From NCBI RefSeq assembly GCF_003334405.1, contig NZ_QOWM01000010.1: a DNA stretch of 64,000 nt, one strand, 5' to 3'. The notes under the pieces are model-generated. The model saw only the letters and a list, made by a program, of their open reading frames with translations. It did no database searches and had not been told where the DNA came from. The position numbers and the translations under genes are program-made. This DNA is from Escherichia coli (GTDB lineage: Bacteria; Pseudomonadota; Gammaproteobacteria; Enterobacterales; Enterobacteriaceae). This document shows, piece after piece, positions 18,921-20,702 of this stretch; positions within the stretch are counted from its first letter, which is position 1, and each line of letters opens with the position of its first letter.

Positions 18921-20702
18921 TCAGGCGCTCAATGATTCCTCTTCACGCACGCTGGCTGCCAGCTCTTCGCCCGCAAGTTGCAGTTGATACATCTGCCAGT
19001 AGCGTCCCTGGGCCGCCAGCAGTTGCTGGTGAGTGCCCTGCTCCACGGCTTGCCCACGATGAAGCACCAGAATGGTGTCGGCATCAACAATGGTCGATAA
19101 GCGGTGAGCAATCACTACCAGCGTGGTATGTTCACGCACCGCCGCCAGAGCATGTTGAATCGCCTGTTCAGTACCGGAGTCAATGCTGGCGGTTGCCTCA
19201 TCAAGGATCAGGATTTGCGGCGTCTCGACCAGCACGCGCGCCAGTGCCAGCAGTTGCTTTTGCCCAACTGAGAGATTATTCCCCTGCTCGCCCAGCGGCG
19301 TGTAAATACCGTCGCTCATGCTACGCGCCAGCTCCGCCAGTTGCACGGTTTCCAGCGCCTGCCAGACGCGTTCTTCGGAGATATCCCGCCCCAGCGTCAC
19401 GTTGGCGAGGAAGGTATCCGCCAGCACCACCGGATCTTGCTGCACCATTGCCACGCCCTGGCGCAGCGCGCTGTGACTTAGCGAACTTAATGGACGATCA
19501 TCAAGGCGAATCTCACCTTCCGTTAGCGGGTAATAGCCCATCAATAAACTGGCGAGGGTGCTTTTGCCACTGCCGGTATGCCCGACCAGCGCCACAAAAT
19601 TGCGCGAAGGCACAGAGAGATTAATGTTCTTTAGCACCAGATTGTCATCGCGATAAGCAAATGACACGTTATCGACTTCGATGGTGCCACTCTGTAACGG
19701 GCGATCATCATTGCCATATTGCTGGCGCGGTCCGTCCATCAGTTCAAACACGCGCTCACCAGCAACAACAGCCTGTTGCAGCATCGCCTGTTGCGTGGTC
19801 AGTTCGATTAATGGTTCGTTAAGTCGCCCAAGATAGCTGATAAACGCATACAGCACGCCCACTTCAATGGTGCCGCTGGCGGAGAAGCCAAACAGCATCA
19901 ACAAGCCACAAAGAATGAGCGATGAAAACAGACTCAGCAGCGGACGCAGCAGAAAACCGTCGAGGCGCAGGGTTTGCATCCTCGCCATATAGTGTGAACG
20001 ACTGGCCTCCCCCATACGTTCGCCAAATCGCGCCTGCTGACGAAACTGCTGGATAACGCTCATGCCATTGATGATTTCGTTAAAGCCGTCGTTGATATCC
20101 GCCAGATAGGCGCGCACACGACGGACAATCGGCGTGCTGTAACGCTGGTATATCACCATTACCACCAGCACCACCGGGAAAATCATTATCGCCACCAGTG
20201 CCATTCGCCAGTCGAGGCTGAACATCGCCACCAGCATCGCGCCCACCAGCGCGGCACTGCGCAGGACAGTTGCCACTACGGTAACGTAGAGATCGCGGAT
20301 CACTTCAGTGTCATTAGTGACGCGGGAAATCACCTGCCCGACGGGTTGGGTATCAAACTCGCTTAATGGCTGGCGTAACGCAGCATCCATCACGTCGGTA
20401 CGCAACTGTTGCACTACGCCTACTGCCGCCCGATTAAACAGCAGCGACTGCGCGTAATGTAGCCCGGCGGCAAACAGTTGCAGCCCAACATACGCCGCAG
20501 CCAGCCCTGCAACCACTTTCAACGGCAGGTTATTTTTCGCTACCATATTGTCGATAAAATAGCTGATAAGCAGCGGCCCACTGACTTCTGCCGCCGCCGC
20601 AACCCACATCATCAGGACCGCAATCCCCAGCGGTTTACGCCACGGCGAACCGTACGCTAACAGGCGCTTGAGAGTCGGCCACAGTTGGCTAAAACTACGC
20701 AT
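18921..20702 (-). CDS. mdlB: ABC exporter ATP-binding/permease subunit MdlB
   Basis: ORF 18921..20816; start at [15 protein letters not shown] gives 593 aa; 6-TM domain plus NBD with Walker [10 protein letters not shown], signature LSVGQKQ and Walker B ILILDE. Confidence 0.93.

Follow-up and report, generated by a model that had tools for sequence, protein, structure and literature searches.

Six Gene Overlaps in a K-12-Like Escherichia coli Window and the Initiation Signals of Their Downstream Genes

Overlapping Gene Pairs in the Window

The window (the whole 64,000-nt stretch of E. coli DNA that was analyzed) contains six gene pairs in which the 3' end of one gene overlaps the 5' end of the next. 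They involve genes of the mdl and cyo groups and the pairs panE/yajL, xseB/ispA, and thiL/pgpA, each established from the sequence, the open reading frames (ORFs), and the RefSeq annotation:

20695-20702, minus strand: mdlA/mdlB stop/start ATGCGTAG, 8-nt overlap, phase 1
42678-42688, plus strand: cyoB/cyoC stop/start ATGGCAACTGA, 11-nt overlap, phase 1
43292, plus strand: cyoC/cyoD stop/start TAATG, 1-nt overlap, phase 2
47697-47734, plus strand: panE 3' end/yajL 5' end, 38-nt overlap, phase 1
50237, plus strand: xseB/ispA stop/start TAATG, 1-nt overlap, phase 2
54727-54749, minus strand: thiL 3' end/pgpA 5' end, 23-nt overlap, phase 1

A 4.5-kb probe around the junction coordinates matched 5,424 of 5,426 complete E. 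coli genomes, with 100% identity to strain M217; overlap coordinates were taken from the M217 RefSeq annotation of the matching 64 kb, which includes mdlA/mdlB, cyoABCDE, panE/yajL, xseB/ispA/dxs, and thiL/pgpA, and carried onto the window, and RefSeq agrees with all six overlaps exact to the base. Translated from the window, every gene is one ORF that opens with a start codon, runs to its only stop at the end, and has the length expected, and in all six pairs both ORFs are intact and lie on the same strand, with the start of the downstream gene upstream of the stop of its partner, as in a unidirectional overlap. The six overlaps and their lengths, first listed in an earlier note made from the sequence alone, are thus confirmed by the sequence, the ORFs, and the transferred M217 coordinates, as is the embedding of the downstream start in upstream coding sequence at panE/yajL and thiL/pgpA. 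All six are already annotated in every E. coli genome, and the window is part of a K-12-like E. coli chromosome.

Overlaps occur in 6 of the 43 co-directional neighboring pairs of the window (14%), with no others among those 43. In prokaryotes generally, ~15% of gene pairs overlap (Huber, 2019; PMC6728339), and among E. coli K-12 ORFs the share that overlaps with another is 18% (Mukai et al., 2015; PMC4434889); the count is therefore not above expectation (14% here versus the ~15% general rate). The overlaps longer than 4 nt (8, 11, 23, and 38 nt) are all 2 mod 3 in length, which is phase 1, and both 1-nt overlaps (cyoC/cyoD and xseB/ispA) are 1 mod 3, which is phase 2. The same length and phase distribution was found over 400,363 overlapping pairs and is reproduced by a neutral model: overlaps in phase 2 are short in most cases, those in phase 1 have to be long, and most long overlaps fall in phase 1 (Fonseca et al., 2013; PMC3887535). 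With the usual overlap rate and the expected length and phase pattern, the description of these junctions in the earlier note as ordinary operon architecture holds.

Short Junctions Across Genera

The comparative set comprised 80 Dxs-anchored loci with 10-kb flanks from species representatives, in which the partner genes were placed by tblastn. The xseB/ispA junction is tight in most of the 64 proteobacterial loci (mostly -3 to +11, with a few larger gaps). Its modal form among these 64 loci is a 4-nt overlap, and its exact length is labile, even closely related genera differing: E. coli and E. albertii overlap by 1 nt, Citrobacter has 0, the values for other enterics are -1 to -3, and pseudomonads carry ATGA. 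The 11-nt overlap of cyoB/cyoC is also present in Arsenophonus, Acerihabitans, and Providencia, and the cyoC/cyoD overlap in other Enterobacterales is 1, 0, or 4 nt.

For mdlA/mdlB, a first homolog search gave close relatives only, and distant MdlB relatives were reached by a search of species representatives. Citrobacter has the same 8-nt overlap as E. coli; three homologs (45-53% identity) have overlaps of 4, 4, and 1 nt, and an AT-rich small genome has a 5-nt gap in place of an overlap.

Shine-Dalgarno Sequences and RNA Structure at the Starts

Shine-Dalgarno (SD) or SD-like sequences were located ahead of four of the downstream starts:

20709-20715, minus strand: mdlB SD GAGGAGG, formed by mdlA Glu-Glu-Ala codons, 6 nt before the ATG; anti-SD -11.8 kcal/mol
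42661-42670, plus strand: cyoC SD-like sequence TAAGGCAGGG
43280-43284, plus strand: cyoD SD GGGGG
47684-47689, plus strand: yajL SD AAGGAG, inside panE, 7 nt before the ATG; anti-SD -9.1 kcal/mol

Four GC-rich homologous loci retain GAGGAGG in the 3' end of mdlA. ispA is essentially without an SD (its anti-SD duplex reaches just -3.2 kcal/mol), and at pgpA the sequence AAGGA lies 0-1 nt from the ATG, too close for a properly spaced SD.

The cost of unfolding the region from -18 to +12 was computed for 52 gene starts of the window. Predicted values are 16.3 kcal/mol for mdlB and 13.5 kcal/mol for cyoD against a window median of 9.9 kcal/mol, and are average or lower for cyoC, ispA, yajL, and pgpA. 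The high predicted costs at mdlB and cyoD would fit structure-based coupling. In the type of unfolding coupling known from atpH-atpA, a conserved structure hides the downstream SD and start; the mdlB SD and ATG resemble this in that they are predicted to pair in a hairpin with mdlA codons 20-40 nt upstream, at high unfolding cost. However, the mdlB hairpin has no extra stability relative to shuffled sequence (z = -0.79) and is not kept in Citrobacter, and was therefore discarded as evidence of structure-based coupling. No notable RNA structure was predicted at the other five junctions, and thus a conserved structure of the atpH-atpA kind was found at none of the six.

Published Initiation Data for the Embedded Starts

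In the INRI-seq experiments of Hör et al. (2022; PMC9825163), synthetic fragments (-30 to +150) of all K-12 genes were translated in a reconstituted system containing retapamulin; Table S2 of that study lists, for each annotated start, the footprint peak beside the in vivo Ribo-RET value. The K-12 oligonucleotides for the six downstream genes are 100% identical to the window, and the published values (PMC9825163) are as follows:

yajL: INRI-seq CPM 73/69/73/67/74, called; Ribo-RET no
cyoC: INRI-seq CPM 98/85/67/65/69, called; Ribo-RET no
cyoD: INRI-seq CPM 32/47/43/51/51, called; Ribo-RET no
ispA: INRI-seq CPM 44/42/33/36/37, called; Ribo-RET no
mdlB: INRI-seq CPM 18/16/29/20/18 (5/5 replicates), called; Ribo-RET yes (13.4)
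pgpA: INRI-seq CPM 0 in all five, not called; Ribo-RET no

The earlier note had proposed a search of ribosome-profiling data for initiation peaks at the internal starts; in the published data such peaks are present in vitro for mdlB, cyoC, cyoD, ispA, and yajL, and missing for pgpA. The annotated starts of these five genes initiate de novo in vitro, and because the fragments carry no upstream initiation codon in context, the five embedded starts are autonomous, that of the SD-less ispA included. These are short fragments from which long-range mRNA structure has been removed, and the assay reports initiation as such rather than in vivo dependence on upstream translation. The pgpA transcript was present in the INRI-seq pool at 57.6 CPM, and the alternative sites of Table S3 include no pgpA entry (PMC9825163). 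Ribo-RET verified ~18% of annotated starts overall (PMC9825163), so its negative results carry little weight. None of these genes was found in the accessible parts of three further sources of start-site or N-terminal data (TRAINSPOTTER, TetRP, and a ribosome-signature study). INRI-seq peaks thus support the annotated starts of mdlB, cyoC, cyoD, ispA, and yajL, and comparative coding evidence and a transcription start site (TSS) support a pgpA start inside thiL.

panE/yajL

The 38-nt overlap encodes PanE residues 292-303 and YajL residues 1-13, and the panE stop codon TAG sits within the YajL Gly-Ser codons GGTAGT. An overlap of 38 nt is also present in E. albertii, Citrobacter, one Enterobacter, and Providencia, and one of 41 nt in another Enterobacter and Acerihabitans; in Photorhabdus the panE stop lies 2 nt ahead of the yajL ATG and there is no overlap. 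The YajL N-terminus is strongly conserved across genera, and the PanE tail is variable in sequence and absent in Photorhabdus. Codon changes in the yajL frame of enteric genera are mostly synonymous (1/0, 2/1, and 3/1 synonymous/non-synonymous codons), with 1/6 in the overlap in Providencia, and every change in the panE frame is non-synonymous (0/0, 0/3, 0/5, and 0/10). In the PanE structure 1KS9 the deposited chain comprises residues 1-291, precisely the part before the overlap; judging from the deposited sequence, the tail was presumably left unmodelled. In our reading, the end of panE is probably a passenger that extends into yajL, the gene under constraint.

A better start for yajL farther downstream, which the earlier note had named as grounds for revising the overlap, was not found: the first 150 nt past the annotated ATG hold no in-frame ATG, GTG, or TTG, and the INRI-seq peak lies at the annotated ATG. 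One in-frame GTG occurs 6 nt upstream of this ATG. A published recoding study shows this overlap in its Fig. 1c and worked around it in its engineering (Mukai et al., 2015; PMC4434889).

thiL/pgpA

The pgpA ATG lies in the thiL Tyr-Asp codons TATGAC, which are part of a conserved G-Y/F-D/Q-H-F motif. The 23-nt overlap is limited to Escherichia, Citrobacter, and Enterobacter; elsewhere the overlap is 8 nt (Photorhabdus and Arsenophonus) or 4 nt as GTGA (pseudomonads), with 4 nt, 1 nt, or gaps of a few nt in others. The in-frame Met17 of pgpA, 25 nt past the thiL stop, is the downstream start that could have removed the overlap. Yet the codons that precede it are conserved and evolve synonymously: across four genera, 8 codon changes in codons 9-16 (KDVAKSRL) are synonymous and 2 are non-synonymous, and a 3-nt indel there preserves the frame. 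Photorhabdus and Arsenophonus retain the AK(S/R)RL motif, and Acerihabitans has it as AKGRV; in these genera the start is unambiguous. Met17 itself is replaced by Leu in one Enterobacter (TTA) and in Arsenophonus (TTG), and no SD precedes it (-0.4 kcal/mol).

As this coding evidence argues against Met17, the pgpA start is either the annotated ATG or the TTG 9 nt downstream (Leu4), the latter giving a 14-nt overlap and a protein of 169 amino acids. We consider the TTG unlikely to be the start. As a start codon, TTG is far weaker than ATG, which counts against it here. The AAGGA 9-10 nt ahead of the TTG has an acceptable SD spacing, versus 0-1 nt for the ATG, the INRI-seq data have no peak at the ATG, and the TTG is conserved in all four enteric genera; however, this conservation says nothing, because the TTG is fixed by the thiL His-Phe-Ala codons. 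There is no peak at the TTG either, pgpA being absent from INRI-seq Table S3, and the ATG is 5'-proximal on the mapped mRNA, 8 nt from its end, in a context that the authors of the mapping call leaderless. Both codons lie inside thiL, and support for the pgpA start comes from the comparative evidence and the TSS.

For E. coli, Romero et al. (2014; PMC4681348) list no more than five mRNAs whose leader is under 10 nt, and pgpA is one of them. According to their Table S3, a class I TSS lies at 435804 and pgpA begins at 435812; the resulting 8-nt leader was confirmed by RLM-RT-PCR. Allowing for the 777-nt offset between genome versions, 435812 corresponds to the annotated ATG at 436589, which places the TSS in the window as follows:

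54757, minus strand: published TSS of the short-leader (8 nt) pgpA mRNA, inside thiL (PMC4681348 coordinates mapped to the window)

Over the pgpA TSS and start, the window matches the K-12 oligonucleotide with 100% identity, and the 5' end of the short-leader transcript reads 5'-GAAAGGAUAUG... (native transcript 5'-GAAAGGAUAUGACC...). Because the TSS lies inside thiL, 8 nt before the pgpA ATG, thiL is untranslated on this mRNA and pgpA is at least partly transcribed alone. The short-leader mRNA fits both the missing spaced SD and the zero INRI-seq signal, which was obtained on an artificial 33-nt leader.

The authors name TAgAcT as the -10 box of this TSS (PMC4681348); we suggest that TACATT is better placed as a candidate -10 element for a TSS at -8. 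Both candidates, TACATT and TAGACT, consist of synonymous thiL codons. The candidate -10 region is polymorphic within E. coli, reading GTTACATTAGAC here and in K-12 and GTCACGTTAGAC or GTCACGTTTGAC in other strains, with GTCACGTT(A/T)GAC in place of GTTACATTAGAC in some strains; the candidate elements are absent in E. albertii, Citrobacter, and Enterobacter. A simple sigma-70-like consensus scan of panE and thiL found nothing on the right strand, a negative that carries little weight since the scan of thiL overlooked the mapped pgpA TSS.

The nearest known counterparts are the leaderless and short-leader mRNAs that arise from intragenic promoters (pgpA and rhlB; Romero et al., 2014), which in the case of pgpA means the same gene with identical sequence. 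The authors class leaders under 10 nt as leaderless (PMC4681348). In the strict sense, a leaderless transcript begins at the A of the start codon, whereas the pgpA TSS is 8 nt upstream; with a leader of 8 nt, not zero, the pgpA AUG is not 5'-terminal, and a further difference is that the -10 candidates are polymorphic within E. coli.

Translational Coupling

The main proposal of the earlier note, that the overlaps indicate translational coupling, is not supported by these data, given that de novo initiation on fragments free of upstream translation is seen for all downstream starts but that of pgpA. No published coupling experiment on any of the six pairs was found in the literature. According to the review of Brown and Wade (PMC12548453), coupling is most efficient from -4 to +3 nt, drops steeply as the overlap lengthens, and decays faster with overlap than with gap, and -8 nt is one of three enriched spacings. 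Relative to the efficient range, cyoC/cyoD and xseB/ispA (-1) are inside, mdlA/mdlB (-8) has the enriched spacing, cyoB/cyoC (-11) is borderline, and thiL/pgpA (-23) and panE/yajL (-38) are outside. Because the systematic study of Tian and Salis, as relayed in that review (PMC12548453), reports no coupling at -25 nt, reinitiation would be unlikely at -23 and -38 nt; for thiL/pgpA, the pgpA TSS inside thiL also runs counter to coupling. Reinitiation is plausible for cyoC/cyoD, xseB/ispA, and mdlA/mdlB and possible for cyoB/cyoC, and we infer that coupling may add to expression at these four junctions.

[quoted passage not shown] The six pairs resemble them in being co-directional and apparently co-transcribed, mostly with an SD inside the upstream gene and with stop and start a few nucleotides apart, including the TAATG motif in cyoC/cyoD and xseB/ispA and the enriched -8-nt spacing in mdlA/mdlB. 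They differ in that none has the commonest motif, ATGA (-4), the -23 and -38 overlaps are beyond the range seen, and five of the starts work alone in vitro.

Obligate termination-reinitiation coupling at all six junctions, fixing the expression ratios of the partners, is improbable. It would be in keeping with a stop and start within 1-11 nt in four pairs, the range of efficient coupling (PMC12548453), with the coupling of four of five tested 4-nt overlaps of E. coli (PMC6728339), and with the near absence of an SD at ispA and of autonomous initiation in vitro at pgpA; moreover, MdlA/MdlB and CyoB/C/D are complex subunits, a class enriched among overlapping pairs (PMC10666635). Nevertheless, de novo initiation on isolated fragments extends to five of the six downstream starts, even to ispA; coupling was reported absent at -25 nt, which is near the length of the thiL/pgpA overlap and shorter than the panE/yajL overlap; pgpA has its own TSS inside thiL; and the partners in panE/yajL, thiL/pgpA, and xseB/ispA have unrelated functions, with no stoichiometry to maintain.

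A two-route arrangement at thiL/pgpA has a similarly low probability: the start 23 nt inside thiL, with no usable SD, might be served both by the short-leader mRNA and by long-range backward reinitiation from the thiL stop. The short-leader mRNA would then come from a lineage-specific promoter built of synonymous thiL codons in K-12-like strains, and reinitiation would serve pgpA in the many E. coli strains and enteric genera where the -10 elements are missing. If true, this would be natural coupling at an overlap length where synthetic constructs give none.

That the long overlaps are annotation artefacts, with the true yajL and pgpA starts past the upstream stops, is very hard to credit: starts at long overlaps are known to be prone to misannotation (Palleja, 2008, cited in PMC3887535), and pgpA offers an in-frame ATG (Met17) past the thiL stop and an annotated ATG with an SD-like AAGGA merely 1 nt away and no initiation peak, but this reading was rejected for yajL on its strong SD, INRI-seq peak, conserved N-terminus, and want of an alternative in-frame start in 150 nt, and for pgpA on the synonymous evolution of codons 9-16, the kept AK(S/R)RL motif, the replacement of the SD-less Met17 by Leu in two genera, and the TSS 8 nt before the annotated ATG. 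A reading of the overlapping pairs as frameshift fusions was set aside, there being no slippery motifs or other signals and an own start in both ORFs.

Origin and Expression of the Overlaps

The six junctions are very probably ordinary annotated unidirectional overlaps at old, tight junctions, in which the downstream genes mainly use their own signals embedded in the upstream gene. Expression of the downstream genes would proceed mainly by initiation at these signals, and for pgpA the published TSS mapping shows a promoter inside thiL that gives an mRNA with an 8-nt leader. While the tight junctions would be old, the exact overlap length would turn over neutrally as start and stop codons are gained and lost, with the partner under weaker constraint simply continuing to read in the other frame. 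At panE/yajL this would be a 12-codon PanE tail running through the conserved first codons of yajL, and at thiL/pgpA the enteric pgpA start would be an ATG that arose from conserved thiL Tyr-Asp codons.

Neutral-origin models (Fonseca et al., 2013; Fukuda, Cock & Whitworth) have overlaps arise when the upstream gene lengthens at its 3' end or the downstream gene at its 5' end. panE/yajL resembles a 3' extension that stops at the first out-of-frame stop codon, and thiL/pgpA resembles the adoption of an upstream ATG; the extended parts drift and the frame of the partner is kept, so that the two pairs are textbook cases with no material difference from the models.

Implications

The substance of these findings is already annotated or published, namely the overlaps themselves, the pgpA TSS in thiL, and the length and phase pattern. 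They caution that an overlap alone is no evidence of coupling, and indicate that misannotation does not explain the two long overlaps and that reinitiation there is unlikely. For genome engineering of E. coli, an edit of the panE stop codon in recoding alters Ser13 of YajL, deletion of the thiL 3' end takes away the promoter and start of pgpA, and deletion of the mdlA 3' end takes away the mdlB SD.

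Overlap Types and the cyoC/cyoD Junction

None of the six overlaps in the whole window (mdlA/mdlB, cyoB/cyoC, cyoC/cyoD, xseB/ispA, panE/yajL and thiL/pgpA) is of the 4-nt ATGA type, which makes up ~45% of prokaryotic overlaps (PMC3887535). The chance of zero ATGA junctions among six is ~3% (0.55^6), and we take the missing type to be a small-sample curiosity.

Features at the overlapping junctions
43278-43280, +, ATG with an extra initiation peak near cyoD (INRI-seq Table S3)
46823-47734, +, panE (PDB 1KS9)
54759-54769, -, candidate -10 elements TACATT and TAGACT for the published pgpA TSS, within thiL codons Val-Thr-Leu-Asp

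In vitro initiation profiling (INRI-seq) records a peak of 21.8 CPM in 3/5 replicates at an out-of-frame ATG that precedes cyoD by 14 nt, with no in vivo signal at this ATG (Table S3, PMC9825163). The window sequence shows that this triplet encodes a Met within cyoC, four codons ahead of the cyoC stop, and the peptide initiated there would be MGAM. The peak is probably an in vitro side product of the GGGGG/ATG-rich cyoC/cyoD junction.

The panE End and the pgpA Promoter Region

The first PanE crystal structure, PDB 1KS9, contains residues 1-291 in the deposited chain, which ends exactly at the onset of the yajL start codon (panE codon 292); all 303 PanE residues are present in later PDB entries.

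The candidate pgpA -10 elements are polymorphic within E. coli: only ~1,225/5,425 genomes have at least 99% identity to the window over 121 nt in this region, and three sampled E. coli strains carry either GTCACGTTAGAC or GTCACGTTTGAC, the latter changing a thiL Leu to Phe.

Comparison With Strain M217

Strain M217 (NZ_AP019189.1) does not match the window throughout, the departures falling in 1-5000 and 60147-64000. Compared position by position, the two sequences lose register from base 3, so that the first 32 kb contain 4,142 mismatches, and they do so a second time from 60147. This pattern suggests indels relative to M217 near the window start and near 60.1 kb. In the M217 annotation, acrR is a frameshifted pseudogene.

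The mdlB Start and Apparent Fused Forms

Ahead of the accepted ATG, the mdlB frame remains free of stop codons for 138 nt (20702-20816 region, minus strand), with ATGs at -102 and -105 relative to that start. One NCBI E. coli protein record (P0003) is 627 aa long and appears to begin at an upstream ATG of this kind; if such a start is used, the mdlA/mdlB overlap would be ~110 nt. Several Logan/ENA predictions are longer still, at 687-817 aa, and resemble fusions of mdlA with mdlB that arise from assembly indels at the 8-nt overlap. Many top-scoring distant relatives of MdlB in the representative protein search are ~1,200 aa long with two matched stretches each and, as judged from these matches, are two half-transporters joined in a single chain; the MdlA/MdlB partnership is found elsewhere as a gene fusion.
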